DNA from: an uncultured Spirochaetota bacterium
Lineage (GTDB): Bacteria > Spirochaetota > Brevinematia > Brevinematales > JAOACQ01
Length of the DNA stretch: 64,000 nt
NCBI GenBank assembly: GCA_963783575.1
Contig: CAWAOD010000011.1
Location: 32,001-96,000, forward strand
Reading direction: 5' to 3'
Of this stretch, positions 15,556 to 38,537 are shown in pieces. The notes beneath the pieces were generated by a model. The model made no database searches. It saw only the letters and a program-made list of their open reading frames with translations, and had not been told where the DNA came from. The translations under genes were made by a program, and so were the position numbers. How positions within the stretch are numbered: the first letter of the stretch is position 1; every line of letters begins with the position of its first letter.

Positions 15556-15909
15556 TTGTATATGTCAAAAATAAAAATATTATCAACCATTCTGCTTTTG
15601 ACTATAAGCAGTATTTCCATCCTGAATGTACAAACTAATCCAAATTATAGCCGAAGCATGATACGTGTCACATTTAAATCTTTTCCTTATCTCGATGACC
15701 CAGCTGGAATTTCTTATAACAGTTATGGTCAACTTGGTGATTTATCTGCATATGTTTTACGTATTTACGCTAAGGCAGCTTTGAACCCCTATATTTCCGC
15801 AATGGAGCAGTCGGAAAAGATGCTCGGGGTCGGTAATATAAGTGGTGTGACAGTGTTACCAGACTCTAAAATATTTGGCAAAATTCTAGTAGTACTTGTT
15901 AAAAGATAA
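15556..15909 (+). CDS. hypothetical exported protein; its last codons come from the Tn7-like left end
   Basis: ggagg RBS, hydrophobic N-terminus; stop lies inside the transposon end. Confidence 0.45.
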   Translation: MYMSKIKILSTILLLTISSISILNVQTNPNYSRSMIRVTFKSFPYLDDPAGISYNSYGQLGDLSAYVLRIYAKAALNPYISAMEQSEKMLGVGNISGVTVLPDSKIFGKILVVLVKR

Positions 15910-16131
15910 AAAAGTTGGAAACTAGATGTCTTGATTTATCAATGTTTTTGGGTATTTTATTATTTTTAATCTAAATATAAAGTTGGAAACTATTAGAACT
16001 TCAACATCCAAATATACTCATAAAACGAATAAAAAAGTTGGAAACTTTACTCAATAAATTATTTAAAAGCCATAAACACTTAGCAGTTTCAAACTATTTT
16101 GTTCAGATCCCAACTTTTTTTTCTATCTACA
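15897..16131. repeat. Tn7-like left end with three spaced AGTTGGAAACT sites, followed by an opposing internal end
   Basis: agttggaaact near 15913, 15981 and 16036; inverted sites near 16085-16115 ending ...tctaca at 16131. Confidence 0.8.
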
Positions 16132-16894
16132 TCTCGCTATTTTTCCAACAAGACTAATTATACTCTGAAGTATGTTCATTTTCAGGTAACTAGGATCAAT
16201 ACCCTTCGTCTCCGGGTAGCCTATGGAATAGAGTGCTGCGATGAAAGGGACAATTGTTGACGGACAAAAAAGTTGGAAACTTTACTCAATAATTTTTTTA
16301 AAAGCCATAAACAGTTAGCAGTGGTAGGCTTTACAATATTGTTTTATCGCTATCTGGCCAGTCTGCTGCCGATCGGATTCAACAAAATAATACTAATGAA
16401 TTTTAAGAGATTTTTGAAACAGCTTAATATTATAGCACAATTAATTTGAAATCGTATCACCCATGAGGGGTGATACGGGTGAAATTTTGTATTAAATATA
16501 TGGTGTGGTGTTGAGATATATAATCGGCTGTAATTATGAAAACCTTGTAAAATCAATGCTATCTGCAACTTTATTTTTCATTCTACTACTTTTTTATCTG
16601 TGGACAAGTTAGTACCATATTTCTTCCCAGTTTAACTCACCGGGATTTTTTCGTACATTTTTCGAGTACATTTTTTAATATGAGACAACGAAACGTTTTC
16701 GACTACTTTAATTATAAAGTAATTCGGGGGTTTATTCACTTCAATTCAAGCTCTTCGGGCTGTTTGCCATAAACAATACTATTCATTTCAAGCCCCGGAA
16801 GATTATTGGGAATCAAATACCGGACTTAATTATTTCCGGTGAGGAAGTCGGATCGGCGGAAAAAGTTGCGCCGGTTAAGATCCTGGAGGCGTGG

Positions 16895-17149
16895 ATGAAG
16901 CGCACCGGGAAATACAAGGTTCTGAATAAAGAGAAAGATCCCCGGTATTCTTTGGACGGCTCAATTATGCAATATAACAGGAGCAGCGGGTTCTTCTGCT
17001 TTAACGGCGCACCGCTGCAGCCTATTAATGATAATGAAGCGGTGATTATGGGGCTGGGCAGGGAACTGGGTGATATAATACAAGCTACGAATACCATAGA
17101 TGGAGAGAAAATATTTTTCAACGGTTACGAGATGATAAAAGAGAAATAA
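16895..17149 (+). pseudogene. probable C-terminal gene fragment of unknown function
   Basis: short protein-like ORF without a convincing start, converging on 17158-18534. Confidence 0.3.
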
Positions 17150-17157
17150 AAACAAAT

Positions 17158-18534
17158 TTAAAAATTGTTTGTCTCAATACCATAATCCGCCGATGCGTCG
17201 ACTGAACTGTAAGAATAAGCGGTCAACCGGGAAAGGTCTGCTGAAATATAAAGACAGGTCAGCGATAAGGGAGCGAAAGAATATGTGATATTCGTGTTGC
17301 CGAGGAGCCCTCCAGCAAAATTTAAAGTCACGGAATAAGGGGCCGTTTTATTCCAGTTTACACAAAAAACGCTGGCATCGCCTGCCGTGTTATTATAAGC
17401 GTAAATGCGTATATCATTTTCAGGTTCTGCGCAGAGAACCATATTTGCGAGGACATGACTGGCGAATAATTCGTAGATATAATAAATCGGCCTGGGTCTC
17501 CTTACAGGACTGGAATCCAGGAAACCCATCACGCTTCCGACTTCGCAGATATCAAATGGAACTACCCCCTGCATTCCTGGCTGGGAAGTTGACGCTCCAA
17601 GAAGATCGGCCATCCACAATCCCCCTTCATAAGTTCCCATGGAAGCTTCGGCGGTAGCTTTATTAGGGCTGCCATCCGCGCAAACATTGCATTCTCCTAT
17701 GATTAAAGGCCGTGGCTGACCGGAGCTTTCTATAATGCTGATTACAGCGGATTCAATATATAAGATGTAATCGAATTGATTCGTTACAAAATCATATGTA
17801 GCTGACAGATCGTCTGAAGGGTAGTAGTGAACTGAAACAGCATCAACATATTGGCCGCAGTATTGTAAAAATGGTTTTATAAAACCATAGCTTTGATAAA
17901 CGCTTGGGCCGGCGATTTTAATCCATGGGTACCTGCCTTTTATCGCGACGGCGACATTGGTATAGCTGTCAATATAAACATTAAAGTCAGCCACATCGAT
18001 ATTATAATAATCATCAGGCTCAGCCCCTATTTCGACCCATGAGAGAGGATAATGCATTATATCGATATAATAAGAAAGTATATTAGTCGCCCTTGCAACC
18101 CTTGCGGCTACGTTTGGTAAGCTTGAAAACGGCAGTGAAAACCAGGGCGTCGCCCCGATATAGGAGCTGTAATAAGCCAGATTATCCATAAATTCCGAAT
18201 CAACACTGTTATCGGAATCCCAGTCCGCCCCCGCACGGAGAAATTTGACATTAAGCGGCTTTATCAACGATTCCGTTCCATAACTCGCCTTCAATGTCGA
18301 GAACATTTCTCCAAAAAAAAGCGGGTTAATAGTACTGATAACGGTCGAAGGTATGATAATTGAAAGGGTGTTTGTAACCTGATACGCCGGATACTTAGGC
18401 GCGGACGTTGAAGAAGAAGCCGAAGATCCCTGGGATGAAGAACCCTGAGAGGATAATCCGGGCATGGAAGCACAAGATGATATATAAATCGCTGGAACGA
18501 GCAGTACAAAAAGGAAGAAAAAGCGTATCTTCAT
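17158..18534 (-). CDS. lipoprotein with a clan-A-like glycoside hydrolase domain
   Basis: lipobox ISSC and Ser-rich linker; WVEIGAEPD, IKIAGP, DAVSVHYY, LIIGECN motifs; beta-rich C-terminus. Confidence 0.65.
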   Translation of the reverse strand: MKIRFFFLFVLLVPAIYISSCASMPGLSSQGSSSQGSSASSSTSAPKYPAYQVTNTLSIIIPSTVISTINPLFFGEMFSTLKASYGTESLIKPLNVKFLRAGADWDSDNSVDSEFMDNLAYYSSYIGATPWFSLPFSSLPNVAARVARATNILSYYIDIMHYPLSWVEIGAEPDDYYNIDVADFNVYIDSYTNVAVAIKGRYPWIKIAGPSVYQSYGFIKPFLQYCGQYVDAVSVHYYPSDDLSATYDFVTNQFDYILYIESAVISIIESSGQPRPLIIGECNVCADGSPNKATAEASMGTYEGGLWMADLLGASTSQPGMQGVVPFDICEVGSVMGFLDSSPVRRPRPIYYIYELFASHVLANMVLCAEPENDIRIYAYNNTAGDASVFCVNWNKTAPYSVTLNFAGGLLGNTNITYSFAPLSLTCLYISADLSRLTAYSYSSVDASADYGIETNNF

Positions 18535-18556
18535 AATTCCCCTCCGATCTTACTTA

Positions 18557-18598
18557 TTGACAAGATGAAATAGTTAATTTATAATTCTATTTCATCTT
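18557..18598 (+). promoter_or_regulatory. consensus sigma70 promoter overlapped by a perfect 12-bp inverted repeat
   Basis: TTGACA(18557)-17 nt-TATAAT(18580); aagatgaaatag 18562-18573 / ctatttcatctt 18587-18598. Confidence 0.7.
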
Positions 18599-18647
18599 AT
18601 AAAAATATTCAATAAAATCGCCAATTATAATTTTTAGGAGTTTTTTT

Positions 18648-19613
18648 ATGAAAAAAAACACAACTGGTTTTTGCTCCTTTTTATTATTTTACATAGTGAT
18701 TTCATCGGCGATTTTTTCAGGATGTTCGAATTCGCCAGGTTCTTCTTCCAGTTCTTCCAGTTCATCCAGTTCTTCAATCTCGGGATCTGTCTGGACTGCC
18801 GAAATAATTCTTCCTACCAACCGCTGGAATTCAATAACTTATGGAAATGGAACATTTGTCGCTGTCGGCCGTGATACAAATTTAGCTAATACTTCACCTG
18901 ACGGTATAAACTGGACAGCGCAAACCATGCCAACAGGTACTAGCAACTGGCAGTCAGTTACATTTGGAAACGGTACATTTGTCGCAATTGCACAATTACC
19001 AACGGCGGCCGCGACATCACCCGATGGTATAAACTGGACGGCCGGGACACTACCCGGCTCAGACTCTTGGCAGGCTGTAACATACGGTAACGGCGTTTTT
19101 GTCGCGGTTACCTGCGGTACATCGGCCGCGACTTCGCCCGACGGGATAAACTGGACGGCAAGGGCACTTCCCGGCTCACACAACTGGAAGGCAGTCACTT
19201 ACGGAAACGGCATTTTTGTCGCGGTTGCCTGCGAAGCAGGAGCGGCTACCTCACCCGATGGTATAAACTGGACGGCCGGGACACTACCCGGCTCAGACTC
19301 TTGGCAAGCGGTAGCATATGGAAACGGCATTTTTGTCGCAGTTGCCTACGGTACATCGGCCGCGACTTCGCCCGACGGGATAAACTGGACGGCAAGGGTT
19401 CTTCCCGGATTAGGTTCCTGGCAAGCAATAGCATACGGAAAGGGTGTTTTTGTTGCGGTCGGCTGCGGCATGGGAGCGGCTACCTCATCCGATGGAGAAA
19501 ACTGGGCTTTACACGCCATGCCGGACTATATTTACTGGAAATCCGTGGCCTATGGAAACGGAACATTCGTCGCCGTTCCGGACGGTAATGTAGTAGCGGC
19601 GATTTCACATTAG
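18648..19613 (+). CDS. lipoprotein with about 39-aa WD40/BNR-like beta-propeller repeats
   Basis: lipobox FSGC, poly-Ser linker, repeated W..V.YGNG.FVAV...ATSPDGINWT. Confidence 0.8.
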   Translation: MKKNTTGFCSFLLFYIVISSAIFSGCSNSPGSSSSSSSSSSSSISGSVWTAEIILPTNRWNSITYGNGTFVAVGRDTNLANTSPDGINWTAQTMPTGTSNWQSVTFGNGTFVAIAQLPTAAATSPDGINWTAGTLPGSDSWQAVTYGNGVFVAVTCGTSAATSPDGINWTARALPGSHNWKAVTYGNGIFVAVACEAGAATSPDGINWTAGTLPGSDSWQAVAYGNGIFVAVAYGTSAATSPDGINWTARVLPGLGSWQAIAYGKGVFVAVGCGMGAATSSDGENWALHAMPDYIYWKSVAYGNGTFVAVPDGNVVAAISH

Positions 19614-19666
19614 ATAAGGCGGTTCCTGAATTTCGATAAACTGATAGCCTAAAATTATATTTTGGA

Positions 19667-20734
19667 GTGTTTTTTATGGAAAAGTGCGGGGCTGGTTTTT
19701 GTGCAGTTCTGATAATATATGTCTTTATAATATACGGTGGAATTTTATCGGGATGTTCAAATTCGCCAGGATCTTCATCAAGTTCTTCCACCAGTTCTTC
19801 ATCAAGTTCTTCGTCCGTTATATCTATGCCTGGTTCGACCTGGACGCCTCAGACGCTTCCATGTTATGCCGGCTGGAGTTCTGTTACTTATGGCAATGGT
19901 ATTTTTGTCGCGGTTGCAAATGGGAGTTCAACAGCAGCAACCTCTCCCGACGGGATAAACTGGACGGCAAGAACAATTCCTGAATCTGCCAACTGGAGTT
20001 CGGTTACATACGGGAACGGCCTTTTCGTTGCTGTTGCCAATAGCAGTACATATATCGGGGTGACAAATGCGGCGGCGACATCGCCTGACGGGATAAACTG
20101 GACGGTACAGAAAATGCCCTTTCTTCCAGAATATGCCGGATGGATTTCAGTCGCGTACGGAAATGGTATTTTTGTCGCAGTTGTAAATGAATTTGGAGGC
20201 AATTTAGCGGCAATCTCCCCGGACGGGTCAAACTGGACGGCCCAGACACTTTCAACAAATACCGGGTGGAGTTCGGTCTTCTATGGGAACGGAATTTTTG
20301 TCGCTCTTGCCAATACCGGTACAGGTATGGGAAATATTACGGCAACCTCCCCGGACGGGTCAAACTGGACATCCCAGACGCTTCCGGCCTTTAACTCTTG
20401 GGCTTCGGGCGTCTACGGGAACGGTGTTTATTTAGCAATTGGAGGCAACCCGACCTGGACTATATCATCCAATGGTATAAACTGGATATCCCAAAACATT
20501 TCGGCAGTCAGCTTCTATCCGATAGATTACGGCTGGATATCCTTAGCATACGGGAACGGTATTTTTGTAAGTATTGCAGACGGAAGTTCGGAAGCGGTGA
20601 CTTCAACCGACGGGATAAGCTGGACGTTCCGGACTCTTCCAACAAGCGCCGACTGGACATCGGTTACATACGGGAACGGCAAATTTGTTGCGGTTGCAGA
20701 CGGAAGCTCATTGGCTGCGATATCTTCCAATTAA
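19667..20734 (+). CDS. paralogous beta-propeller repeat lipoprotein
   Basis: LSGCSNSPGSSSS N-terminus shared with the upstream gene; same repeat unit. Confidence 0.8.
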   Translation: MFFMEKCGAGFCAVLIIYVFIIYGGILSGCSNSPGSSSSSSTSSSSSSSSVISMPGSTWTPQTLPCYAGWSSVTYGNGIFVAVANGSSTAATSPDGINWTARTIPESANWSSVTYGNGLFVAVANSSTYIGVTNAAATSPDGINWTVQKMPFLPEYAGWISVAYGNGIFVAVVNEFGGNLAAISPDGSNWTAQTLSTNTGWSSVFYGNGIFVALANTGTGMGNITATSPDGSNWTSQTLPAFNSWASGVYGNGVYLAIGGNPTWTISSNGINWISQNISAVSFYPIDYGWISLAYGNGIFVSIADGSSEAVTSTDGISWTFRTLPTSADWTSVTYGNGKFVAVADGSSLAAISSN

Positions 20735-20814
20735 CATCTTGTTTTACGGCTGTTTGATAATAAATATTCTATTAATTAGAATTTTGTTAACAATCGTTAT
20801 TTTAGGGGTTTTAT

Positions 20815-22272
20815 ATGAAAACAAGATTTTCTGGCTTTTTTATTGCCCTTATTTTATTAGTGCTTTTGTCATGCTGTTCATTAGCGCAGAGTGGAGGAAG
20901 TGGAAGTAGCAGCAATATAGGCGGCAGCAGCAGCAGTATCACAACCAACAGCTTTAGCTCATACACTAATAGCGATGGTGTTATCTATACTAATACAGGG
21001 ACTTATTGGATTTTATCATCGGGCGCCATCACAAGCGGAAATATTACAATTCTATCAAATATCAATGGGATTCCTGTAAACAGCATTGGTGACTACGCAT
21101 TTTGCGTTTGTACTAGACTTACAAACATTAATATTCCTCCCAGTATTATAAGCATCGGTTATGAAGCATTTGCTTATTGTTCCGGTCTTAGCGGAATAAT
21201 CATACCCTCCGGCATAAAAAGCATCGGCAACAGCGCATTTTATTCCTGCAACAATCTTATAAATGCTGAAATACCGACCGGTGTTACTAACATCGGCGAT
21301 TACGCATTTGCGTACTGTTCAAGTCTTACAAGCATTACCATCCCATCAGGCGTTACAAGCATAGGTAATAACACATTTTGGAATTGCACCAACTTAACCG
21401 GGATAGTCATCCCCTCCAGTATTGCAAACATTGGCAGCTACGCATTTAATTCCTGCACCAGTCTTACAAATATTGTCATCCCCTCCGGCGTTGCCAGTAT
21501 AGGTAATTATGCGTTTACATACTGTTCAAGTCTTAGTGGAACAATAAACATTCCCTCCGGAGTCAAATATATCGGAGCCGGAACATTTCAGGAATGTTCC
21601 GGTTTAAATAGTGTCAACATTCCCTCTGGCGTTTTAAGCATCGGCGACTTCGCATTTTATGGATGTTCCGGCCTGACCGGTATAGCCATTCCATCCAGTG
21701 TTACAAGCATTGGAAACGAAGCATTTTCAGGATGTACCGGTTTTACCAATATCATCATCCCCACTGACGTTATGAGCATAGGTTACTGTGCATTTTTTGC
21801 ATGTTCAAACGCAACCGGCATAACCATCCCCTCAGCCGCCACAAATATTGAGTATGACGCATTCTGGGGATGTTCCGGTATGACTGGAACTATAATCATA
21901 CCTTCAGGCGTTAAAAATATCGCAGACGGAACATTCCAGGGATGTTCCGGTGTTACCGGCTTCATTATTTCCACCGGCGTTACAAGCATTGGCACGGAGG
22001 CTTTTTCTTCGTGCAGCGGCTTTCCCGGCATAACCATCCCATCTAGTGTTACTAACATCAACATGCTGGCATTTTTTGGCTGTTCAAGCCTGACCAGCGT
22101 CACTGTTCAAGAGACTACTCCTCCGGCTTTGCAATTAGGCTCAGGGGGAACAGCAGGGGCATTTAACAATTGCGCCGGTGGATTGCAGCTCCATGTCCCT
22201 TCTGGATGTGTTTCCGCTTATCAGACGGCGACCGGGTGGAGTTCGTATTCGAATATAATAGTTTCGCCTTAA
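20815..22272 (+). CDS. BspA-type leucine-rich-repeat surface lipoprotein
   Basis: many 23-aa IPSGVTSIG..AF..CS.LT repeats; signal peptide ending LSCC; Ser/Gly linker. Confidence 0.9.
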   Translation: MKTRFSGFFIALILLVLLSCCSLAQSGGSGSSSNIGGSSSSITTNSFSSYTNSDGVIYTNTGTYWILSSGAITSGNITILSNINGIPVNSIGDYAFCVCTRLTNINIPPSIISIGYEAFAYCSGLSGIIIPSGIKSIGNSAFYSCNNLINAEIPTGVTNIGDYAFAYCSSLTSITIPSGVTSIGNNTFWNCTNLTGIVIPSSIANIGSYAFNSCTSLTNIVIPSGVASIGNYAFTYCSSLSGTINIPSGVKYIGAGTFQECSGLNSVNIPSGVLSIGDFAFYGCSGLTGIAIPSSVTSIGNEAFSGCTGFTNIIIPTDVMSIGYCAFFACSNATGITIPSAATNIEYDAFWGCSGMTGTIIIPSGVKNIADGTFQGCSGVTGFIISTGVTSIGTEAFSSCSGFPGITIPSSVTNINMLAFFGCSSLTSVTVQETTPPALQLGSGGTAGAFNNCAGGLQLHVPSGCVSAYQTATGWSSYSNIIVSP

Positions 22273-22499
22273 ACAAATAAGTTATTACTCGAGTTTCGTG
22301 CCCCAATAAAAATAGGATAAATGTATATATATTAATAAGTTAAAATCTGAATGAAACATCAATTTCTGCTATAATATGTTGTAACCTAATCATGCAAAAA
22401 AGGAGAATTATCATGCTGTTGAGATTTAAAAATATAGTCTAATGGACAATTGATGATAAAGTTTTTACCGTAATAGTTGTTATTTTCATGTAAAACAAA

Positions 22500-22845
22500 T
22501 GTTGACGGATAAAATAGTTTTGCACTGGATCAGGCAAATATCAATCGATTATAAAGCAATTTCTTAATATCATGTGAAATAAAGTTGTGCACTGGTAAAT
22601 TCAGTAGAATGAATTAATATTAAAAAATCATCGGGCACTCTCATATACAATAAGTTAAGTTTCCTCGCGTAAAAGCCCATGAACCTTCAAAATTCAAGAT
22701 GACTAATTCAGTACACAACTTTTTTGTTCTGTAAACAACTTTTTTGGTCAGGGAACAACTTTTTTGTCCTCTGACATCAGTTCATAACTTTTTTATATAC
22801 TTCACAACTATCTTATTCAGTTCACAACTATTTTATAAACTCACA
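22500..22845. repeat. cluster of internal Tn7-type ends (one left-type, two right-type)
   Basis: TGTTGACGGATAAAATAGTT at 22500; three 20-bp-periodic acaacttttttg sites ending ...ctgaca at 22776; three ttca(c/t)aact sites ending ...ctcaca at 22845. Confidence 0.8.
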
Positions 22846-23839
22846 CCACCATTTTATCACTTGGTCTAATATGCCAACTTTCGACTTCTATTATCCAAGA
22901 GGGATTAATAATCTTATCATAGGGATTTTGAATAATAATTGGTTCATAATTTGGTGTTTCTAAATGAATTCTATCAACTAAATACAAAAAATATTGATCT
23001 TTTTTAAGTTTAGCAACATCTACCTCATTTCTTGACCAATAAAAATTTAGCCTTTCAGCAAATGATTTTACTTCAATATATTTGTCGATCAATTTTGATT
23101 CTTTATTTAGAAATGAAACAATATCATATCCAGCATTTACATCTATTTTACTGATGATTTTAATCTGATCAATAAAATTATGATCATTCAATCTTTGAAG
23201 TTCATAAGTTAGTACAAAATCTTCGGCATCATCTCCAAGTTCTGATTTGTATAATTGTAACTCTCTAAGACGTTCTAATGAAATAGTAGTTTTATTATTT
23301 TTAGAATAAAGTATTAAAATTGGAATGATTTCTTCTACAAAGTACTTAAGATACTGGATACTGATCAATAAAGTACTTGAAGTTCTATTATAAACAAAAA
23401 AACCGATACTAATTAATAAATTTCTTATTCCTGAAAAATCAAGGGGTATTAAATTCATACCAATAGAAGCCGTTGAAGCTATTACATCAAATTTAATCTT
23501 ATTAATATCAAGGAACCTATCAAGAACATTGTTATCAATGAATTTCTGAAATAATATCTTCAATAAAATTATTTTTAGATCATCATCATTTTTTTCTTGT
23601 GCATATAATCCAAATTCACTTAAATAAACTTCTCCATTCGAGTCTATGATCACCCAAGTTAAAAACTCAAGCAAATCTAACACACCTTTATAACAATAGG
23701 CTAGTTCTACTGATTGCCCTATACAATATCTTTCAATATCAACAACTTTCATTGATCGAGATGATAAAAGATATTTAAAGAGAAAAACAATAGATTCAAA
23801 AGAACCAAAATTATTGTTTTGTTGAATTTTGTGAAACAT
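22841..23839 (-). CDS. DUF3883 (NO VEIN C-terminal)-like PD-(D/E)XK nuclease domain protein
   Basis: LGDDAEDFV...GYDIVSF...YIEVKS...FYWSRNE. Confidence 0.75.
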   Translation of the reverse strand: MFHKIQQNNNFGSFESIVFLFKYLLSSRSMKVVDIERYCIGQSVELAYCYKGVLDLLEFLTWVIIDSNGEVYLSEFGLYAQEKNDDDLKIILLKILFQKFIDNNVLDRFLDINKIKFDVIASTASIGMNLIPLDFSGIRNLLISIGFFVYNRTSSTLLISIQYLKYFVEEIIPILILYSKNNKTTISLERLRELQLYKSELGDDAEDFVLTYELQRLNDHNFIDQIKIISKIDVNAGYDIVSFLNKESKLIDKYIEVKSFAERLNFYWSRNEVDVAKLKKDQYFLYLVDRIHLETPNYEPIIIQNPYDKIINPSWIIEVESWHIRPSDKMVV

Positions 23840-25783
23840 AATTGTTTATTAATGCCATAATATCATCCAAATCTGTATTTTCATTTAACCTATTAAATAA
23901 TGGTATTGGTTAATGTTCGATAATTTTTATCATACGCTCCTCTTTAAATATCAATCTATTATGGATTGTTCTATCTGTATTGTTATCTGATAGTAAATAA
24001 TAATAGTTTATTTTATCTCCTTTTTCTAGCCCATAACGATGGATACGATCTTTTGATTGAATGAAATGTGCAGCATTAAAAGTTCTTTCAATGTAAATTG
24101 CAGTATGACAAGCTTTATGTAATGAGATTGACTCTGAAATAGCGAAGGGATTTGCAATGATCACTTTAAATTTACTTTGCGGATTATGAAATTATTTAAC
24201 TATACTTTCACGCGTAGATTCAGAATTGTTATCATCATCTTGTTCAACAGGTGTAGCTCCATATAAAGTCTGATTCTCGATCCCAATAGATGATAAATAT
24301 TCTGATAGATCAAGAATATTTTTTATGAATATAGCCCAAACAATTATCTTCTCTCCTTTCTCAATCAATTTTTTTAACATCTCACCTAAATATATGAATT
24401 TCCTAGGTACTTCTAATTGATCATACGATATGATCTTTTGTATTATTAATGAATCATCAATAAAGGTTTCCATACTAATCTCTTCTTCATCAAAAAAAGT
24501 ATCTATTGGTTTTTGCAATAATGCTGGATTTGTTGATACTTGCATTAGTCTTATAAGACGAGCTTTTGTAAGAGCGTTCATTAGATTTTTTGTGGAATTT
24601 TTAGCTTTAAAAAATTCATATATTTATTTTCAATAAAGTTGTAGATTTCTCTTTGAACTGGCCCCATAGACACAATTATCGGTTCATTTTCAATAGGTTC
24701 GGGTATCTTTAAATCACTTTTACGAATACGTAAGAAAAAAGGGGAAATATTAGATAAAAGTTTTGATATACGAGGATCATTTGTATTTTGAGACATATCC
24801 TTAAGCTGATAAGGATAAAAATTTATAATATTTTTTGTTGGCCAAATAAATTGAAAAAGATTATCCATATCCTCATACCCATTTGGCGCAGGGGTACCGG
24901 TCAAAACAACCCTTGACTCACAATATTTTGATAAAGTCAACACAGAATTAGCAATTATTCCACCTTCAATATTTTTTATTTTGTGTGCTTCGTCAAGTAT
25001 GACCATTGTTCGATATTTTTTCAAGAAAAAAATTATATCATCTAATATTCCAGGTACGCCTAGATATGATAATAATGTTAATTCAGCAGGATAAGAAGAA
25101 TATAAGTGCTTTATACGTTCTGATTTAGGGACCCCTCCTGATATTCTCTTTGAGGATGGCTTATGACCAAAGCATTCAAAATATTCATTCTCCCAAGGTC
25201 CAAAAGAACTTAATGGTCCTATGATCAACAGTCTGTCAATCTTTTTCGGGTCATTATCAGGCAATGTTTTTAGATATGAATATGCTCCATAAACTATACT
25301 TGTCTTACCAGATCCTGGTACCGAAAAATTACAAGCATTTTGAGAGAAAGCCAAATGGTAAGATGATAGTAACTGAAGTGGATATAATCTTCTAGAGGGT
25401 AAATTTATGATTAGACTATCTGTAAACTTTTTAAATTGATTCAGTTGTAAATCGTCCAACTGATTGTTTCGAATATCAAAAGCTTGCTTGGAGAATAACT
25501 TAAAATTTTCTTCCTCTTGATAATAATCCCGAAGAATTTCCTTTATTGTTGACGTTGTACTTTCTGTAAAACCAAATTTTTGCAATAATTTCTGAATATT
25601 TTGTAAGACAACTTCTTTTTCCTCGGTTTCAAAAGGAATTTTAAGATGATCTTTTACTTCAATAACATGTAAATAATCCCGTAAATATATCAAAGATCTT
25701 CGATTCGATATAAGATTAATAATATCTCCTGAAAGAATATAAAGATTCTTCTGAGTATCAATATCAATTTCAATTACTGGCAC
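23808..25783 (-). pseudogene. SNF2-like SF2 helicase/ATPase, broken by one frameshift and two in-frame TAA codons
   Basis: SVPGSGKT, ILDEAH, LTGTP and QSKDRIHRYG motifs across ORFs 24581-25783, 24192-24581 and 23910-24164. Confidence 0.85.
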
Positions 25784-28692: not shown

Positions 28693-28713
28693 AGTATTTC
28701 TCCCAAGATGACA

Positions 28714-29166
28714 TCATCCATAAATTTTTTTTACTTGATCAATATACAACTGTATATTATTATTAATCTTACACTCCCACATCACCAATACTTTCCATCC
28801 TTTATCTTTGAGTTGTTGTATTTTAAAATTATCTCGTTCAACGTTTTTTTTAAACTTAGAAATCCAAAAATCTGTATGAGATTTTGGAATAGAAGGATTG
28901 CAAAAAGGACATCTGTGCCAAAAACAGCCATTTACAAATATGGCAATCTTTCTGCCAGGATAGCAAATATCTGGTTTACCCGGCACTTTTCCCCAATGCA
29001 ATCTATAACCTTTCATTTTATTAACAAAAAGGCTCTTTCTTAATATTATTTCTGGTTTAGTGTTTTTATTCTTTATTGTACTCATTATTCTTGATGTTAT
29101 TTCTTTTTCAGGAATAGGTGCTCGACCATCCCTTATGTATTTATCGCGCATTAAATTTAATATCAT
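28714..29166 (-). CDS. vsr: very short patch repair endonuclease
   Basis: SRIMSTIKNKNTKPE, GKPDI, FVNGCFWH, GWKVLVMWEC. Confidence 0.92.
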   Translation of the reverse strand: MILNLMRDKYIRDGRAPIPEKEITSRIMSTIKNKNTKPEIILRKSLFVNKMKGYRLHWGKVPGKPDICYPGRKIAIFVNGCFWHRCPFCNPSIPKSHTDFWISKFKKNVERDNFKIQQLKDKGWKVLVMWECKINNNIQLYIDQVKKIYG

Positions 29167-29381: not shown

Positions 29382-30983
29382 TTAAATTATAGAAAAATAA
29401 TTAATAATTATTTCCTCAATCCTTCTTCCCCAATCTTCAATACTTTGTCCTTTGACATGCTTAACAAATTTATATTTAAGACCTTCCTGCCTATTTAGAA
29501 AAGCAGTATTCCAGTGAAAATATTTATCTGCTAACATATTCAGATTATCAATAATTACATTACTATAATCATTAATTTCAAATCTGAATTGAAAAACCAA
29601 GGTAGATGCTGATTCACCATTTATTCGATTGATCTCAACAAGATAACATGTACCTATATCACTACCATCAATTCGGACAACAGTGCAGATCCTGCCGTCA
29701 CTGGAAATCCTTTTTTTACTATAAAGATTAATGAAAGTAATGGATATTTCCCAGTTTTTGTGTTTTTTCCGGATATAATCAATAACATCTAAAAAGTCTT
29801 CCAGACCTGGAAAAGTTTTATCCGCCAATCGGTCAAATGATAAAAACTCAATCGACCTGATCTGCCCGCCCCTTGTCCAATCCCTGACAGTTCCAATCAA
29901 TTCAGGCGATACATTTGAAGGTCCCTCTTGTGATGTTTTTCTGGCTTTATATTTATTATCCCGATCCCGTATTTTTATAACGATAGGTGCTCGTTTAAAA
30001 CTTGCTCCTAAATGACCGGATGTTACTTTGACAGTTTTTTCCCACCTGTTCGCGTCTTCTCCGGTCTCGTCAGGAAATATTTCCGGAAAACCATCAGAAA
30101 CAGATCCATTTTTATTATTTCCATCCGGGACATCTTCAAATACCGGTTGAATAAGATTAGGGGATTTGTATTTTATTTCACTGAAAGGATGCACTAACCG
30201 CTTTCTTTCAATTAGTTCTAATATAAGGAAAATGTCATTATATTTCAATCCCCGGTATCGCCAGATTTCACCAGGAATCACTGGAGGATCTGTTACAACA
30301 GGTATTCCATAAGAAAAACCTTTCCTAGGGTCACCGTATCTCCTTATTGCCTCAATATAAATGTTCCTATAAACAGAACACCAGGCATTATACCCTTTTT
30401 CATAAAAACGCAGCCAGGTAAAATATGAAATGGCATCATCCCTGAGTAAAATTTTAGGAAAATCAGGGGTTAATGTTATTTCCAGATTTTTATTATTAAT
30501 ATTATAAGATTCGATGAAAAAATCCAATCCGCTTGTTTCAAGTATCCGGTTTGCAAGAAGCCGGTAAGGAGTTAGAATTTTGCGGACTATTTCCATATAA
30601 GGAATATAATAATTAATTGAAGATATTTTAAAACTGCAAAGTAACTGGTTCCTGTAAAATGTATTATTATAAAATGGGTACAATTCCTTTGGAATATCTA
30701 ATCCTGAATTTTTGCTGAAATCAACATCACCTGGGAATATCAGAATTCCTCCTGAACCGGAAGCTTCAGATATAGCAGTTCCGTCCATATATTTACACCC
30801 TGTGCGAAGTATTGGCAAATAACCAATGGGTAGTCTTTCATCACTGAAACTCCCGTCCTGTCTTCTAAAGAGAACCCTGATATCCCATTGCTGCTCACTG
30901 TTCAAGACCGGTGAGCCAAGCCAGTATAATTCCACTTTATCACCAGGATCGAAATTCCAAGGAGTTATCCTAAAACCACTCAT
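29382..30983 (-). CDS. tnsE: TnsE-like Tn7 target-selection protein
   Basis: 533 aa, directly after tnsD; C-terminal R...VVRI...YLVEI.R...SASTL...W...VKH pattern resembles the TnsE C-terminal domain (by eye). Confidence 0.65.
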   Translation of the reverse strand: MSGFRITPWNFDPGDKVELYWLGSPVLNSEQQWDIRVLFRRQDGSFSDERLPIGYLPILRTGCKYMDGTAISEASGSGGILIFPGDVDFSKNSGLDIPKELYPFYNNTFYRNQLLCSFKISSINYYIPYMEIVRKILTPYRLLANRILETSGLDFFIESYNINNKNLEITLTPDFPKILLRDDAISYFTWLRFYEKGYNAWCSVYRNIYIEAIRRYGDPRKGFSYGIPVVTDPPVIPGEIWRYRGLKYNDIFLILELIERKRLVHPFSEIKYKSPNLIQPVFEDVPDGNNKNGSVSDGFPEIFPDETGEDANRWEKTVKVTSGHLGASFKRAPIVIKIRDRDNKYKARKTSQEGPSNVSPELIGTVRDWTRGGQIRSIEFLSFDRLADKTFPGLEDFLDVIDYIRKKHKNWEISITFINLYSKKRISSDGRICTVVRIDGSDIGTCYLVEINRINGESASTLVFQFRFEINDYSNVIIDNLNMLADKYFHWNTAFLNRQEGLKYKFVKHVKGQSIEDWGRRIEEIIINYFSII

Positions 30984-30987
30984 TTTC

Positions 30988-32571
30988 TCAGCCTACCTTA
31001 TCTATAGAATAAGTATGATTGGAATATCTTTTTATTTCTTCTTCTATTTCTTCATTAATCTTTGAAGAATAACCCGGTCTGATCCCTGCTTTACGTATGA
31101 TTTCCCATTTTTGTAAACATTTTCCATCAGAATTTAATTCTGCGGCAACCCACCTGATCCTTCTTATCCTGAATTTTTCCACTGATTCTGTAACTTTTTT
31201 TATATATACCATTGTATCTGGCATTTTATCGGGATGTCTATTAAGCCAGACCCGTGCTCCGGATTTTCTCCCGATTACATTTACCGTTATTCTTTCCGGT
31301 TTTAACTTACTTTCAAGCATCGCTTTTGTAATAAGTTTTGCTTTTACAAGGGTTTCCCTATCCCTCCGGGTCCAGTCGATTCTATGTGGATTATATTTAT
31401 TTATAACAGAGCATGGGGAAATATTATCCAGCCAGGCTTTGTCGTTCCTGATAAGCCAGGAGAATGTTTTATGTTTTTTGTTTGCCAGGATTGTTCTATT
31501 TACACCGGGATATTTATTTATTATGTCTACCCATTCATTCCTGTATTTTTCCTGTTCCGGAATGTTACAGGATTGTGTTTCATGAAAGCGTTGTTCGGTT
31601 TTTATCTCGTTTAATTTAAGCCATTTTATTTTAAAAAAATTCCTGGAATCCCCGCACAAATAGCGCATCATAAGAAGATGGCGGACAGGATGGAATGATT
31701 TCTCATGTTTTCTTATTATTTTTATCGGCCAGCTGTGAAGATCGGCAATTGAGAAATCCGATTGAACCATTCTGAGAAACTCGCTTCCATAATAATTATG
31801 GAGATCATTTATAAACTCGTTTAGGAAATGTCTCCTGTCTTTCTTTTTTATTAAACCTCGATCCGCAAGTAAATAAAGGTACTTGCGCCTGAAACCCTCT
31901 TCAATATCCTGCGATCTCCTGATTATTTCATAGTTATCATAGACCCATTGTATATCAGCCGCTAATCCATCAAGTTTCTCAATAATTTTATCCCCAAACA
32001 ACACATTTTGGGTATTATCCGGATAATTATCCGGGCTTGCTTCTGAAAATTCATTCTTTTGATCCGGGTGAATCCTAAAAGAACTATAATGAAGGACTTT
32101 CTTATGGTCCGGGCAAATCAGTACTCCGGGAGTATTTTGGATCCGGTGCCAGTAATATTCCCCATGATTTAAAAGATCTTCCCTGCAACAATCCGGGCAG
32201 AATTGAAAAAAGGGAAATATATGGACTGAACTTACCGTGATACCTGTTTTTATGTAGATATTCCCTCTATAGGGCTTTCCCATGGTTTTGTATACTGATT
32301 TTGCTCTGATGGCAGGCAAAAAGGCTGTATAAAATGGATAAAGAGTATGGTTTATTATCAAATCTTTCTTTGTTAATTGATTGTAAAATGGTAAATTCCG
32401 GACGAGATAATCAATATGGCAGGGCGGATCGACAGAAGCAATAAACCTTGGATTTCCAAACAATTCCCGGGTTGTTGTCCTGAAAAAGATATTTCCGCTT
32501 CGGATATGAGCTCTCGCTACGATACTATATAACAACTCTCCTTTGTAAGGTTGTGGAAAATAACACAGCAT
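30988..32571 (-). CDS. tnsD: TnsD/TniQ target-selection protein
   Basis: YFPQPYKGELLYS, HTLYPFY, FCPDC, YWHR...CPDH zinc finger, RIDW..RD. Confidence 0.9.
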   Translation of the reverse strand: MLCYFPQPYKGELLYSIVARAHIRSGNIFFRTTTRELFGNPRFIASVDPPCHIDYLVRNLPFYNQLTKKDLIINHTLYPFYTAFLPAIRAKSVYKTMGKPYRGNIYIKTGITVSSVHIFPFFQFCPDCCREDLLNHGEYYWHRIQNTPGVLICPDHKKVLHYSSFRIHPDQKNEFSEASPDNYPDNTQNVLFGDKIIEKLDGLAADIQWVYDNYEIIRRSQDIEEGFRRKYLYLLADRGLIKKKDRRHFLNEFINDLHNYYGSEFLRMVQSDFSIADLHSWPIKIIRKHEKSFHPVRHLLMMRYLCGDSRNFFKIKWLKLNEIKTEQRFHETQSCNIPEQEKYRNEWVDIINKYPGVNRTILANKKHKTFSWLIRNDKAWLDNISPCSVINKYNPHRIDWTRRDRETLVKAKLITKAMLESKLKPERITVNVIGRKSGARVWLNRHPDKMPDTMVYIKKVTESVEKFRIRRIRWVAAELNSDGKCLQKWEIIRKAGIRPGYSSKINEEIEEEIKRYSNHTYSIDKVG

Positions 32572-32574
32572 ATC

Positions 32575-34098
32575 TCAGCCTGCTTTGATAAACTCTTTTA
32601 CAGGATCTTTTATAAATCCAGCTTGTTTTAATGCTTCATAAGCACTTAACCCTTCTTTTTTTGCTTGCTTTATTATGATCCTTAGATCATTATTATCGAT
32701 TTTAGGACTTTTATTTATAGGATTACTGTTGTCATAAGCTTTTATCTGTTTTTCTTTACTTGTTTTACAGTTCCTGTTTTTATTTATACTCCCTCTTGAT
32801 TTGATATTGTCGGTTAAAATTATTTGTGATGCAGTACTGTTTATTCTATTTTCACACAGCTTATTTATATCCAGCGGAAGTAGATCTTCAAAATTGGAAA
32901 TGGTCCTATAATCTCCTGATTTAATCGCTTTTAACATAGGTTCAAGAAAGCTAAGACTTTCCCTTGAAGCACTTCTGACAACACTTGGAGTAAGTTTTTC
33001 TTTGCCGGAAATAATCGCCTCGACCTGCGAAAGAATAAAAAGCTTTACTGTTACATCTACAATGCCTTGGCTTAATTCATAGAATAGATCAGACATTCCT
33101 TCAGTTAATGGTATAGAATCTTTGGACCATTGAAATTTCCAGAATCCTTTTAAAAGTAAATCCCACCATTCATTTTTCTTCATATTCTCCCAGATCACGC
33201 TTCCCTGTTGTCCGGTACTGCGCCTTGCCTGTCTGAACTCGCCCTGGAGTATTGGCAGCGCTTTATTTGTCCCAATCAATATAATAGGAACACCAATAGT
33301 ATTCACTAAATTGACAAAAAAATTCAGCATTTTCTCAGAACCCCTGCTTTTTGCCGCACTTAAGTGCTGGATTTCATCAATTACAAGAAGCCCAAGACTT
33401 TGTCTTTTTGCTAACTGTGCCATCCGGGGGATCATCAAATCAGTTGTTGTATTATGTCCTGAAGCGAATTTGTTATATGTATTTTCTCCAAGAAGTTCGT
33501 CAAACTGCATAAAAAAACTTGAACACAAACCTTTAATACTACCGTCAAGCGGGCATTCAAGCTTCATCCAGACCAATTGATAATGCTGTAAAGGCTGATC
33601 CTCATATAAATTGTGGACAATAACACGGGGATATAAAGCCAAAATCTTTTCAATTGCTCTTGACTTTCCCACACCTGAATAACCAATAATTGTAAATCCG
33701 GAAGCGGATGAAGGCGAAAGATTTACCCCTTCAAACCTGCTGTCCTTTTCCTTTAAGGCTTTATAAAGCTGATGCATATCGGCAGCATAAGCCGGTTTGA
33801 TCGGATTTCTGGATATGTATCCCTGCCGTATAGCAGATGATATTTTATTTTCTATTTTAAGATGAATATCCCAGGGTTGAAAGAAATTACACAGTCTCTT
33901 GACACATTCTAAACGGAAATGGGGTTCAAGCAATCTTTCAGATTCATTGAAATCTGGATAATACTGTAGATGCTTTACTGCTTCTTGAAAAGACATCATA
34001 GGTGGAAGGGCTTTTATCAGCGGATTAGAATTGAATTCAGGCAGAACCTGTTCAGTATATATCGCTTCTTCTGGTTCAAAGCGGGATTCATTATTCAT
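32575..34098 (-). CDS. tnsC: TnsC AAA+ ATPase
   Basis: Walker A GYSGVGKS, Walker B LLVIDEIQ, FRQARR. Confidence 0.92.
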   Translation of the reverse strand: MNNESRFEPEEAIYTEQVLPEFNSNPLIKALPPMMSFQEAVKHLQYYPDFNESERLLEPHFRLECVKRLCNFFQPWDIHLKIENKISSAIRQGYISRNPIKPAYAADMHQLYKALKEKDSRFEGVNLSPSSASGFTIIGYSGVGKSRAIEKILALYPRVIVHNLYEDQPLQHYQLVWMKLECPLDGSIKGLCSSFFMQFDELLGENTYNKFASGHNTTTDLMIPRMAQLAKRQSLGLLVIDEIQHLSAAKSRGSEKMLNFFVNLVNTIGVPIILIGTNKALPILQGEFRQARRSTGQQGSVIWENMKKNEWWDLLLKGFWKFQWSKDSIPLTEGMSDLFYELSQGIVDVTVKLFILSQVEAIISGKEKLTPSVVRSASRESLSFLEPMLKAIKSGDYRTISNFEDLLPLDINKLCENRINSTASQIILTDNIKSRGSINKNRNCKTSKEKQIKAYDNSNPINKSPKIDNNDLRIIIKQAKKEGLSAYEALKQAGFIKDPVKEFIKAG

Positions 34099-36256
34099 TT
34101 TTCCTTTTTAAACCTTCTTCCTGCATTTTTCTTATATATTCAATATTGATAATATTCGTTGATGTATTATCCTCTTCCTCTATGCTGACATTATCAATGG
34201 AGTTCGGTTTTTTATCTTCTTTTCCCAGAATAAACGATTCTTTTTTTCTATTGACCAGTTTTTCATTTGCTCTGTTCTCTCTGATACCTCTTATGCGCGA
34301 AGCTTTACTGGCCTCTGGAAAAATATTTTTTTCTGTTTTCTTCTTTGATTTCTTTACAATATTCTCAAGTTCCGAAATCAGATCAACCTTTGACTGTATT
34401 ATTACACCTGCATTTTTCTGTCTGTTTAATTTTTCATACGCTTCCAGATAATCAAGTTCTTCAGCCGTTTTCCCAATAAACCCCTGGCCTTCAATTAGGT
34501 AACAGACATCATAATTCCGTCCGTCTTCTAACCTAGCATAAATACGGTCTAAAATCCTGGGATCATATGATATATCAATCTTCCAGCTTCCTCTGCTTCT
34601 TGCTTTTTCAAACCAGTGTTCTGAAATTGCCCTGTCACTTTTGTAATACCTTGTTTTAAATTTTATTCCCTTCTCTGTTACAGTTGCCGAAGCAGCAGGC
34701 ATTAAACTGAGCTTTACAATTTCATCTGGAGTTGACCGGAGGCTGCCGGACCTATGGATAATACCCCAGTTCCATATTTGAATTGGAATAGGATCAACAT
34801 TTCCTGCTGCTAATTCCTCATCCCTGCTATAACTATCCATCCAGTTATGATTATTATGATAAAGGACACAGCGTATTACCATTTCTGTAAACTCGCTGAT
34901 ATCCATCTTTGCGTCCAGTCGGTAATCCTGGCCGCCCCTTTCCCTGAAATCAGTGTCTATATATCCGGGCGCCAACGGTTTGACTTTTATATTAAGAGTC
35001 CTGAAATACTGTTCTACAATACCTTTCCAATCAGCCCTGTAAGGAGGGGTATTTTCTATTTTTACATGGAGGGTATTGATCAAGGTATCAATGTTTTTCC
35101 CTTCCATCTCGCCCCTGTCAGCCAGGATCGATTCCGGAATACCACTGCATGGCCAATCTTCTTCTGTAATATTAATTCCATAGTCCCTGCAGAACTCAAC
35201 CTTATCTGAAGCTGCGTTTGCAAGTGCCATCATCGCTCCAATCCATGATGGTCCTTCCAGGCCCACATAAATTCCTGCTACCATTCTCGAAAAAACATCA
35301 ATAATAACATAAATTACAGGGCGCCCTATTATCCATTCCCTGTTAATACTTGAAACCAAATAAATATCACCTACAGTCGCGTCTATTTGGTACTTAGCCC
35401 CTGGTCCCAGATTACCTTTATCGGATTTTCCCAATATTGCTCTGTGCTGAAGTTAATATTTTTTCGCTCCTAGTCTTGAAGACAATATTTTTTTAATATT
35501 CTGCTCTTTTTGAAACCAGTATTTAAATTGCGTAAATGACGGAATTTCTTTTATTGGGTACAATAGTGCCTTTTTTATGCCATTCTCCATTACGAATCCA
35601 TCGGTATAAAATTTCTTTACCATCATATGATAAGCGTCAACCAGGGAATTTTTTTTCGGGGTATTATAAAAATTACTTATAGCAACTCTAAAATTTCTCT
35701 TTGCAGCTTCATCAACATTTGTTCCATGGATGTTGAGATTTTGGGTCTTTCTGGGTCTTCCTATTTTCTTTTCGCCTAGAACTTTATCTTTTCCTTTTCC
35801 TCCGGATTTCCAATAATCCGGTAGAAGTGCATTTTTATTCTTTCCCCTCTGCCAGTACCTTCGAAGGTATTTATAAATATATTTTTTCTGGATACCATGT
35901 TCATTTTTTATTTCATTAATAATAGAGCCTCTTTTTTCACGGAAATATATTTCAGGTTCGTTTGACACTGCATTCTCAATTATTTTCCAGGATTTATCAC
36001 GGATAGTTTTTGATTTCGAATTGATTGATTCTTCTAATATTGCAATGGAAAATGGATCGTCCACAGTAATCTGAATCATTTTTTTCTCAATTTCTTCAAG
36101 TATAAAATCATGGTCTTTTATTTCGGGGAGGGCTTTATTGGATTGGATATCTATGGTAACAATTATACTATTGTCAACCCATAAAATTCTTTCAAAATTT
36201 ACTATGCCCTTTTCATTTATCAATTTTAAAATTTCATTCACTATAGGAATTTTCAT
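34091..36256 (-). pseudogene. tnsB: TnsB DDE transposase with an in-frame TAA at 35453-35455
   Basis: YLRRYWQRG N-terminal piece; QIDAT, IDVFSR, ADRGE and KGIVE motifs; both pieces share one frame. Confidence 0.9.
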
Positions 36257-36263
36257 GCTAACC

Positions 36264-37090
36264 TCTAGTTTTGCTCAGAGATATCTAAATTCAAATTATT
36301 AAAATTTAAAATCATATTTTCAGCTTTTTGATTAAGTTCAAATTTTACATTCATATCAATGATTACTTGCTTAGATGCAATTAAGTGTTTGAAGATTTTA
36401 AGAAATGTTTAGATCAAGAGTATCCAAAATATTCTGGATAGTATCGGTTTTATGGAAAAGGTTTTGTTTTAGAATATGAATCATTTCACTTAAATTATCC
36501 TGGTCTTTATATCCCAGGTCAACAGGATTTCTGAAAAAATGAATCCTCTCGATATTTTCAGTAAGTTGTGAAGGTAAAAGTCCATCAGTGACAATTCCCC
36601 AATCGATTCCCTTTTCCTCCCAATAACACCTTTCAATCTCCAGATTTTCAATTTTTCTTGATCTGTTAAGATCCTCTGACAGTTTTACTGTTCTTACAAT
36701 ATTCATTACACTGCAGGAATCACGTACAGTTATCATAAAATCCGATGTTAGAATAACAGGGGTTTGACTCTGCCTGTTGATAGGATATTTGATATCTTTT
36801 TCCTTAGCTATTTCTTTAGTTCTATTCCTATCCAGCAACGGAAACTGTTCCCTTATATCGACAACACGATCGGACCATTCTAAAAGATAAAATAATTTTG
36901 TTTCCTGGTCGGACATAAAATGATGGGTTCTGCTGGTTTTCCATCCGAATACACGTGATACTCTACCGAGTGACGGGAAATCATGAATACTAATCCAGGG
37001 TTTATAATTTTTACCTTCTCCGCTCCCGTACCCTTTCTTTATTTTCTCAGCTATATTATTTTCACTGGGTATTGATCTTGTTTTTGCCAT
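36264..37090 (-). pseudogene. tnsA: TnsA endonuclease, C-terminus frameshifted near 36400
   Basis: GYGSGEGKNYKPW, HHFMSDQE, DIREQFPL, LTSDF, EIERCYW motifs; tail FKHLIASK...IDMN continues in another frame. Confidence 0.9.
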
Positions 37091-37154
37091 CCTTCCGTCC
37101 TCTGTTATTCTTGATGCTATTTCATGATCGGATATACCCGGAGCAGAATATTAT

Positions 37155-37221
37155 AGTTTCCAACTTTTTTATCTAGTTTCCAACATTATTATTCAGTTTC
37201 CAACTATTTTATATTTCTACA
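37155..37221. repeat. Tn7-like tnsA-proximal end with three 20-bp-periodic TnsB sites
   Basis: agtttccaac three times, ending ...tttctaca. Confidence 0.9.
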
Positions 37222-38537
37222 GTACTCAATATAAGCAGCGCCAGCATTTCGACGTGCTGAGTCTGGGGAAACATATCTACAAGAACCAATTCTTTGAGTT
37301 GATATTTTTCCGAAAGCAAATGTATATCCCTTGCCATGGTTGAAGGCTTGCATGATGAATAGATGATCTTTTTGGGCTGCATTTTTAAGAGCACATCAAG
37401 ACATGCTTTGTCCATACCCCTTCGCGGCGGGTCGATTATCATAACATCCGCATAACCAAGTTCCGGAAGCTTTTCCTCGACCGCAGCCTGGATAAACCTC
37501 AAATTTGTGCCGATTTTATTTCTTATAACATTCTGTTGAGCGTCAAGAACCGAGCTTTTCGCTATCTCTACGCCAATAGTTTCCTTCGCAAAAAAGCTCA
37601 CAAAAAGTGTTATCAATCCTATTCCGCAATAAAGGTCAAAAATCCTTTCATGCCCGGCGGGATCAAGAAGACTTATTATTTTTTCGAGCCAGAGAGGGAT
37701 GACTCCATTATTCACCTGGAAGAAGCTATCTTTGGATATTTTAAACGAAATAGATTTCCCGGCGGCAGAAACCGTTTCGTAAACTTCACTGTCCCGGTAT
37801 CTATCGGTCAGAATCCAGTTTACTACCGTATCGCCCGAATCAGTTGTCCTTACCTTAAAATTATGCGGTGGAAAAACTGATTGTGATCTGATTAGGTTTA
37901 ATGCCTTGTTAATTTCGGGCATGGCTAAAAGGCATTCATTTATATCCACTATTGATTTGGAGTCTTTGCGGAAAAAACCGATATGCCTGCTTTTATTCCC
38001 GACTTTAAAAGTCTCGGTATTCCTGTAATTGTAAGGATTCGGGCTTTTTATCAGCCCGGTCAGGCCGTTAATTTCCATCTTACCGATTCTGCGGATGGTT
38101 TCAAGCACAGTCTGTTTTTTTAACTCGAGCTGTTTATCATAATCCAGCATCTGGTAATCGCAACCGCCGCAGATTGAGAAATAAGGGCATTTAGGTTTAA
38201 TTCTGCCGGGGGATGGTTCGATTATTTCCGCAGGCTCTGCCATGGCATAATCTTTTGTTTCTTTATAAATATTCGCTTTGACGGTTTCTCCGGGAATAAC
38301 ATATCTTACAAAAATAACCTTCTCATTTTCACGGGCGATACATGCCCCTTCGCCCGCATATTTTTCAATCTTAAGAATAGCTTCCCTTTTTACCGATTTG
38401 GTCCGGCGGGGATTTAAACCGTCAAATATGGTTTTATCATTATCCGGTCCGTTTATATTTGTTGATAAAGAGTCATTATTCATATCAACGGAATGAAATG
38501 ATTCATTTGGGGATTGTTTTTTTAGGCTGCTTTCCAT
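37209..38537 (-). CDS. rlmD: 23S rRNA (uracil-C5)-methyltransferase, RlmD/TrmA family
   Basis: TRAM domain, CPYFSICGGC, SFFQVN, DLYCGIG, DPPRRG, YSSCKP, DMFPQTQHVE. Confidence 0.92.
   Translation of the reverse strand: MESSLKKQSPNESFHSVDMNNDSLSTNINGPDNDKTIFDGLNPRRTKSVKREAILKIEKYAGEGACIARENEKVIFVRYVIPGETVKANIYKETKDYAMAEPAEIIEPSPGRIKPKCPYFSICGGCDYQMLDYDKQLELKKQTVLETIRRIGKMEINGLTGLIKSPNPYNYRNTETFKVGNKSRHIGFFRKDSKSIVDINECLLAMPEINKALNLIRSQSVFPPHNFKVRTTDSGDTVVNWILTDRYRDSEVYETVSAAGKSISFKISKDSFFQVNNGVIPLWLEKIISLLDPAGHERIFDLYCGIGLITLFVSFFAKETIGVEIAKSSVLDAQQNVIRNKIGTNLRFIQAAVEEKLPELGYADVMIIDPPRRGMDKACLDVLLKMQPKKIIYSSCKPSTMARDIHLLSEKYQLKELVLVDMFPQTQHVEMLALLILSTVEI

Follow-up and report, generated by a model that had tools for sequence, protein, structure and literature searches.

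A probable two-pathway Tn7-like element at the 3′ end of rlmD in an uncultured spirochaete, with insertions at the same site in related and distant bacteria

We analyzed a 64,000-nucleotide stretch of DNA from an uncultured Spirochaetota bacterium (assembly GCA_963783575.1, contig CAWAOD010000011.1, positions 32,001 to 96,000; hereafter the window) that carries a Tn7-like element at the 3′ end of rlmD, a 23S rRNA methyltransferase gene. The element occupies 15897–37221 (21,325 bp, 35.8% GC) and has TGT...ACA termini. The features on which the argument rests are as follows, in window coordinates:

15892–15896, + strand: left copy of the GTACT duplication, read from the sequence
15897–16049, + strand: outer left end, TGT plus three widely spaced TnsB-type sites
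29382–30983, − strand: tnsE, 533 aa, without a Pfam match; its top six fold matches are TnsE C-terminal domains
30988–32571, − strand: tnsD, 527 aa, TniQ and TnsD domains, intact; putative rlmD target selector
32575–34098, − strand: tnsC, 507-aa AAA+ ATPase, Walker A and B present
34091–36256, − strand: tnsB, one frame, stop at codon 268, DDE motifs present
36333–37090, − strand: tnsA, frameshift after codon 230
37152–37221, − strand: outer right (tnsA-proximal) end, three TnsB-type sites 20 bp apart; gives the last rlmD codons and stop
37222–37226, + strand: right copy of the GTACT duplication
37209–38537, − strand: rlmD, 23S rRNA m5U1939 methyltransferase (TIGR00479), the target gene
37248–37277, − strand: conserved DMFPQTQHVE codons of rlmD, putative TnsD recognition site

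The GTACT target-site duplication is exact (15892–15896 and 37222–37226), with TGT at 15897 and ACA at 37219–37221. An earlier note on this DNA had claimed exact ends and this duplication, and both copies and both termini can be read directly; its right boundary, 37226, marks the same junction but includes the right GTACT copy, and the element stops at 37221. The two termini are identical at 23 of 27 nt. Three TnsB-type sites with a spacing of 20 bp lie at the tnsA-proximal end, which faces rlmD as previously described, versus spacings of 68 and 55 bp at the far end. A genome-wide search for TGT plus a site with an exact core returned two matches on the plus strand and one on the minus strand, all within this element. 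Two marks of Tn7-like transposons are thus present, a 5-bp duplication on both sides and asymmetric TnsB-site arrays with TGT...ACA termini. The third, tnsABC and a TniQ/TnsD selector in one operon, was found by Pfam matches (PF08722, PF09299, PF13401/PF05621 and PF06527+PF15978), with tnsA and tnsB interrupted. These four genes and the 533-aa gene are all on the minus strand, and each is single-copy in the 4.9-Mb, 18-contig genome.

Both tnsA and tnsB read as broken, and the lesions could be real or could be assembly errors, since a nearby host aminotransferase gene is split as well and another assembly has a 99%-identical TnsD with a frameshift where this one is intact. The aminotransferase gene (DegT family, 41038–42163) is divided over two frames here and intact in genome G011, a spirochaete of the same family, which hints at assembly errors. 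The 533-aa protein on its own has no Pfam match, and Atlas and homolog searches gave none. In a fold search of its predicted model, ranks 1–6 are TnsE C-terminal domains (E 6.9e-4, probability 1.00), and the protein matches a TnsE profile at 3e-7, the profile containing known TnsE-domain rows. The fold matches back the suggestion that the element carries a TnsE-like gene for a second pathway.

The target gene is identified as RlmD with 298 bits against a TIGR00479 cut-off of 183.55. The insertion point lies 26 nt past the E codon of DMFPQTQHVE, where about 25 bp had been estimated, and the element's end does encode the last rlmD residues and the stop, as had been proposed. We compared the rlmD tail at 28 loci of relatives, 24 of which have the motif, one of these being occupied. 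In the unoccupied relatives with the motif the rlmD stop falls 8–11 codons after the E codon (23/23). Across 13 occupied sites, the conserved bases are the DMFP-x-T-x-H-V-E codons and the sequence at the insertion point is not conserved; this codon conservation is no proof of TnsD binding, because the codons are conserved for protein reasons anyway. Insertion behind glmS defines Tn7 proper; this element is at rlmD, and no Tn7-like end is present at glmS, purU or the second rlmD paralog of this genome. The glmS elements among the study loci show the same geometry as at rlmD: 8 of the 11 listed are inserted 26–28 nt beyond the final glmS codon.

TnsD matches were found in 6 of 401 genomes of the phylum, this one included. 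The closest (55% identity) is in G011, of the same family and another genus, where a tnsABC-tniQ-tnsD element has its right end 28 nt after the same rlmD codons, directly behind the native stop. The locus check advised by the earlier note therefore places the closest homolog at rlmD and not at glmS or a random locus. That this TnsD recognizes rlmD gains from this position; direct recognition is read from association, and the next-closest TnsDs use purU and glmS. A second right end in the same orientation lies just past the G011 tnsD (L039:1566-1650), without a left end or cargo, and the G011 locus looks like a decayed tandem stack at rlmD. In G019 (TnsD 42% identical) a right end is found 25 nt downstream of the purU stop codon, and the site is empty in its congener G025 (L040:13303-13489, G019:C25); purU is a candidate attachment site from this one case, and no left end was found for the G019 element. 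The G012 and G331 elements are at glmS, and in G012 the last purU codons plus about 60 bp recur as several tandem repeats after the gene (L252). In G003 the TnsD match is on a 1.5-kb contig and rlmD is empty. Compared with the G011 (rlmD) and G019 (purU) proteins, respectively, identities are 36.5 and 46.5% for TnsA, 47.2 and 53.1% for TnsB, 46.3 and 50.9% for TnsC, and 55.1 and 41.9% for TnsD. Only TnsD is closer to G011, whereas TnsABC are closer to the purU element, indicating that the site follows the TnsD lineage and not TnsABC, in a clade with two members only.

Searches further afield gave more distant proteins. In a metagenome scan (39 loci) the best whole-gene TnsD matches reached about 40%, none of them close, and rlmD was never a neighbor; the upstream host gene, where seen, was glmS. 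A plasmid search returned distant TnsDs only, below 30% among the 25 of 226 matches listed. At L071:508-4283, genes directly upstream of tnsA, accompanied by a short TniQ, are presumably a type I cas operon, judging from their motifs.

The two spirochaete insertions could descend from one ancient rlmD insertion inherited by both genera and followed by decay and rearrangement, with no ongoing targeting; the hosts belong to one family and both copies look decayed. The offsets (26 versus 28) and the TnsB sites differ, however, and TnsABC are 36–47% identical versus 67% for RlmD. Among the 24 listed relatives with the motif, an end behind rlmD is found only in G011, and the four congeners of G011 lack tns genes there (rlmD empty in G003 and G008; no TnsA or TnsD match in G006 and G010). 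The duplication of the element studied here is still perfect. Shared inheritance is therefore extremely unlikely: the different offsets, different TnsB sites and unoccupied congeners argue for two independent insertions.

The same position is used by a second TnsD clade, in Bacillota. At an Anaeromicrobium locus a 503-aa TnsD, 30% identical to that of the spirochaete element, accompanies an end located 25 nt past the E codon of rlmD. The clade of this protein comprises 13 genomes, 11 of which have a Tn7-like end at +25 to +27 of rlmD (G401, G708, G405, G1141, G1142, G1197, G1255, G1280, G1304, G1359 and G1418); in six genomes the tns genes are downstream of rlmD on the same contig and strand. 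Four elements are bounded by 5-bp duplications (25.9, 41.0, 56.5 and 59.5 kb; end identity 15–21 of 30), and two of the four have another right end, that of a second stacked element, directly behind. No left end was confirmed for G1359 or G401. Together with +26 in the window and +28 in G011, these are independent insertions at a fixed distance and in one orientation, and rlmD looks like a dedicated landing site and not a chance one.

Behind rlmD, the end pattern was found in 4 of 61 genomes of the G1359 family and in 1 of 401 Clostridia sampled, that one being the sample's center genome itself; pattern matches in G1448 and G1442 were not counted. A three-site end lies at +26 in G1459, in whose genome no clade TnsD was found. 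No such end is present at the listed rlmD copies of four genomes whose TnsDs belong to other clades. Among 31 regions surrounding TnsD matches from the order of G401, glmS occurs in 14 and rlmD in none.

Five of the Bacillota islands, G1197 (L211-L213), G1359 (L214-L217), G1418 (L218-L221), G405 and G1141, have two direct copies of a gene-less mini-element as borders. These measure 294–608 bp, and the copies are 100% identical in three islands and 99% and 80% identical in the other two. The bases at the inner junctions are conserved across species and not duplicated. The border mini-elements look like the product of a cointegrate-type life cycle. In G1359 and G1418 a gene adjoining tnsA is presumably integrase-like.

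Trees were built with FastTree and with a quick IQ-TREE search; in two sets trimmed of long-branch rows, 50 and 24 rows were kept of 77 with 6 more added. Support is 99 for a sister pairing of the two spirochaete rlmD TnsDs. In trees of the whole protein and of each half they group with the purU and glmS proteins of their own order or stand apart, and in none of them do they join the Bacillota clade. A constraint uniting the seven rlmD rows in the 24-row set was rejected by the approximately unbiased (AU) test (log-likelihood 65 lower, p-AU 0.00024, LG+G4 quick search), the group having been defined by site, although after earlier trees had been seen. Rejection of a single origin suggests that the two clades adopted rlmD convergently. 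Among neighboring spirochaete proteins the TnsDs at glmS, purU and rlmD are 644, 524 and 527 aa long, the latter two lacking about 120 aa found in 630–645-aa relatives. Length was rejected as a diagnostic of target, as TnsDs of 497 and 512 aa sit at glmS. On balance we lean slightly towards a view in which the DMFP-x-T-x-H-V-E codons are a landing pad captured convergently, on at least two occasions, by unrelated TnsD lineages in Spirochaetota and Bacillota, the glmS, purU and rlmD TnsDs form a natural series in which target specificity could be mapped and exchanged, with the insert of about 120 aa lost in two, and the Bacillota elements may move in a cointegrate-like manner.

On the far side of the element from rlmD lies an open reading frame (ORF) without a useful match in the genome or Atlas:

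15556–15896, + strand: orphan ORF in the left flank, continuing into the left end of the element; probably foreign DNA already in place of the native rlmD stop

Removal of the element in silico gives an RlmD of 472 aa versus 442 aa, with 42 codons and no stop after the E codon. Compared with the 8–11 codons of relatives, the modeled empty site suggests that foreign DNA replaced the native stop before the insertion. Going leftward from the element one meets the orphan ORF, then a Tn3-family element, then an hsdM remnant and the end of a polyketide synthase gene, and together with the missing native stop this bears out the earlier suspicion of a foreign left flank. The Tn3-family element (8352–15267) has matching terminal inverted repeats of the 38-bp type, a split transposase and ArsR, TauE, CMD and methyltransferase cargo. 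The end of the large polyketide synthase (10–4908), adjoining the hsdM remnant, has, judging from its motifs, a putative terminal reductase-like domain. We also weighed whether an 8-bp direct repeat across the empty site was an older duplication and rejected this, its translation being judged not to restore a tail of native length. Elsewhere in the window, 56001–59000 is very AT-rich (21–26% GC versus 37% for the genome).

Given such a flank, the element might have entered foreign DNA, ORF 15556, that happened to abut rlmD, by chance or through the TnsE pathway. The element does encode TnsE, the duplicated bases and left flank are non-native, the empty site runs 42 codons without a stop, and the ORF runs into the left end. 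This account would, however, require a coincidence by which the closest TnsD homolog lies no more than 2 nt from that spot and points the same way, where the end pattern is so rare behind rlmD that it occurs in 0 of 400 sampled Clostridia besides the center genome; we consider it highly unlikely. Insertion at the usual distance despite non-native bases at the insertion point fits a ruler mechanism. Targeting of rlmD by something other than TnsD on the HVE codons, namely homing to an earlier integrative element at rlmD, comparable to the serine-integrase elements at rumA in streptococci, homing to a terminator-like structure, or use of another TniQ, is very unlikely as well. The foreign DNA in place of the native stop and the extra TniQ of G011 speak for it. 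However, the G011 end is directly after the native stop, and in G405 and G1141 the native stop is just behind the far end, so no earlier integrative element is needed; moreover, the element in the window has no extra TniQ, and the upstream codons are conserved where the insertion-point sequence is not.

We conclude, with a probability of about 0.88, that the element is a two-pathway Tn7-like transposon whose TnsD, ancestrally directed to a glmS-type site, was retargeted to the 3′ coding end of rlmD. Several observations weigh against this conclusion. Its own TnsD clade has only two located members, and most support for the rlmD site comes from the separate Bacillota clade. No left end was found for G011, leaving its duplication uncheckable, and its second TniQ (331 aa) could do its targeting. 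In the Bacillota clade, G404 and G608 carry the clade TnsD with no end at the rlmD copies seen, the G708 end is weak and the G1255 end begins GGT. The bases duplicated in the window are unlike a native rlmD tail, the element having landed in DNA already foreign. No residue set unique to rlmD-targeting TnsDs stands out.

Tn7 itself uses TnsABC with TnsD to enter attTn7 behind glmS and TnsABC with TnsE to enter plasmids; TnsD recognizes conserved codons, TnsC fixes the spacing to the insertion point, and TnsAB places the element with its right end facing the gene. By analogy with this biochemistry, TnsD of the rlmD element would bind the DMFP-x-T-x-H-V-E codons and load TnsC, and TnsAB would insert the right end at a fixed distance, 25–28 nt after the E codon, whatever the local sequence. 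Insertion at that distance would keep the catalytic part of rlmD, a new stop being often provided by the element's end. The second, plasmid-directed route would depend on TnsE. The separate TnsD lineage of Bacillota probably reached the same site independently.

The element is also composite. In addition to its outermost ends, it has six further Tn7-like ends, absent from the earlier note: right ends at 16131, 16606, 22776 and 22845 and left ends at 16255 and 22500. The end pattern occurs 75 times in the genome, and six of the eight matches with repeated sites are in this element. The internal features and cargo are:

16083–16131, − strand: internal degenerate right end; with the outer left end, a 235-bp gene-less mini-element
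16132–16254, unstranded: 123-bp spacer from the mini-element to the second left end, probably captured donor DNA
16255–16322, + strand: second left end, 92% identity over 63 nt to 16025–16087, without a matching duplication
16560–16606, − strand: internal right end with a different site sequence
17158–22272, unstranded: cargo, four serine-rich lipoprotein-like genes (weak GH39 match; two repeat proteins; BspA leucine-rich repeat)
22500–22845, unstranded: cluster from other Tn7-like elements, a further left end at 22500 plus a pair of right ends, abutting, at 22776 and 22845
22841–29166, − strand: cargo, defense-type cassette of NOV_C protein, split SNF2 helicase, split DNA cytosine methylase fused to a long second domain, and Vsr

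The two right ends in the 22500–22845 cluster join exactly after the third TnsB site. No internal pair of ends has a common 5-bp duplication, which the outermost pair alone has, and none is therefore a clean nested insertion. On the simplest reading, the main element, remnants of other Tn7-like elements and the 235-bp mini-element form a composite last moved as one unit by the outermost ends. Similar composites, with internal ends and captured flank, are described for Tn6022 in the text available from PMC11014353. The cytosine methylase, Vsr, split SNF2 helicase and NOV_C protein possibly constitute a defense cassette; the methylase (25770–28692) is in two frames, the second part fused to about 600 residues without a Pfam match.

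The element resembles Tn7 in gene order (tnsABCDE), TGT...ACA ends, asymmetric TnsB-site arrays and a 5-bp duplication, and in the tnsA-proximal end that faces the 3′ end of a conserved gene with insertion about 25–28 nt past conserved codons, as measured here on glmS elements. Unlike Tn7, it is at rlmD, with insertion at or inside the last codons so that the stop comes from the element's end, glmS of this genome is unoccupied, and its TnsE is too divergent for Pfam. Protein-guided sites other than glmS are known from the consulted text of three papers, for parE and tRNA TnsDs and for comM with TnsF of Tn6022 (PMC11406308, PMC10293859, PMC11014353); these share with the rlmD element a Tn7-like core retargeted to conserved coding sequence. 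Unlike them, it has no TnsF, and a Pfam scan of its ORFs found no cas family or other CRISPR-Cas genes, no dedicated array search having been run, so that it is not classed as a CRISPR-associated transposon.

Term searches of main-text passages of PMC8649781, PMC10293859, PMC11406308 and PMC11014353 turned up no rlm gene, and neither rlmD nor rumA appeared in the supplements of PMC10293859 and PMC8649781 as searched, whose tables may hold such elements without naming the site. The literature searched, with subscription papers and preprint supplements outside its scope, places no Tn7-like element at rlmD or rumA. In streptococci, according to the portion consulted of PMC13693407, rumA/rlmD is an integration site of serine-integrase integrative and mobilizable elements and of other elements; the host gene is the same, but those elements enter by site-specific recombination within the gene versus DDE transposition with a 5-bp duplication here. 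We regard rlmD as a real attachment site of known mechanism, ordinary Tn7 homing at a new gene, and as apparently unpublished.

The finding is of value for how broadly the site is used, for its independent origins and for the glmS, purU and rlmD trio. The Tn7 family gains a widespread attachment site, and rlmD becomes a place to look for large defense and cargo islands (26–59 kb in the Bacillota cases). With one motif captured by two TnsD lineages, and with relatives that read glmS, purU and rlmD, the change of TnsD target becomes directly testable. An rlmD-homing TnsABCD from Bacillota could serve as a single-copy integration tool for Gram-positive hosts.

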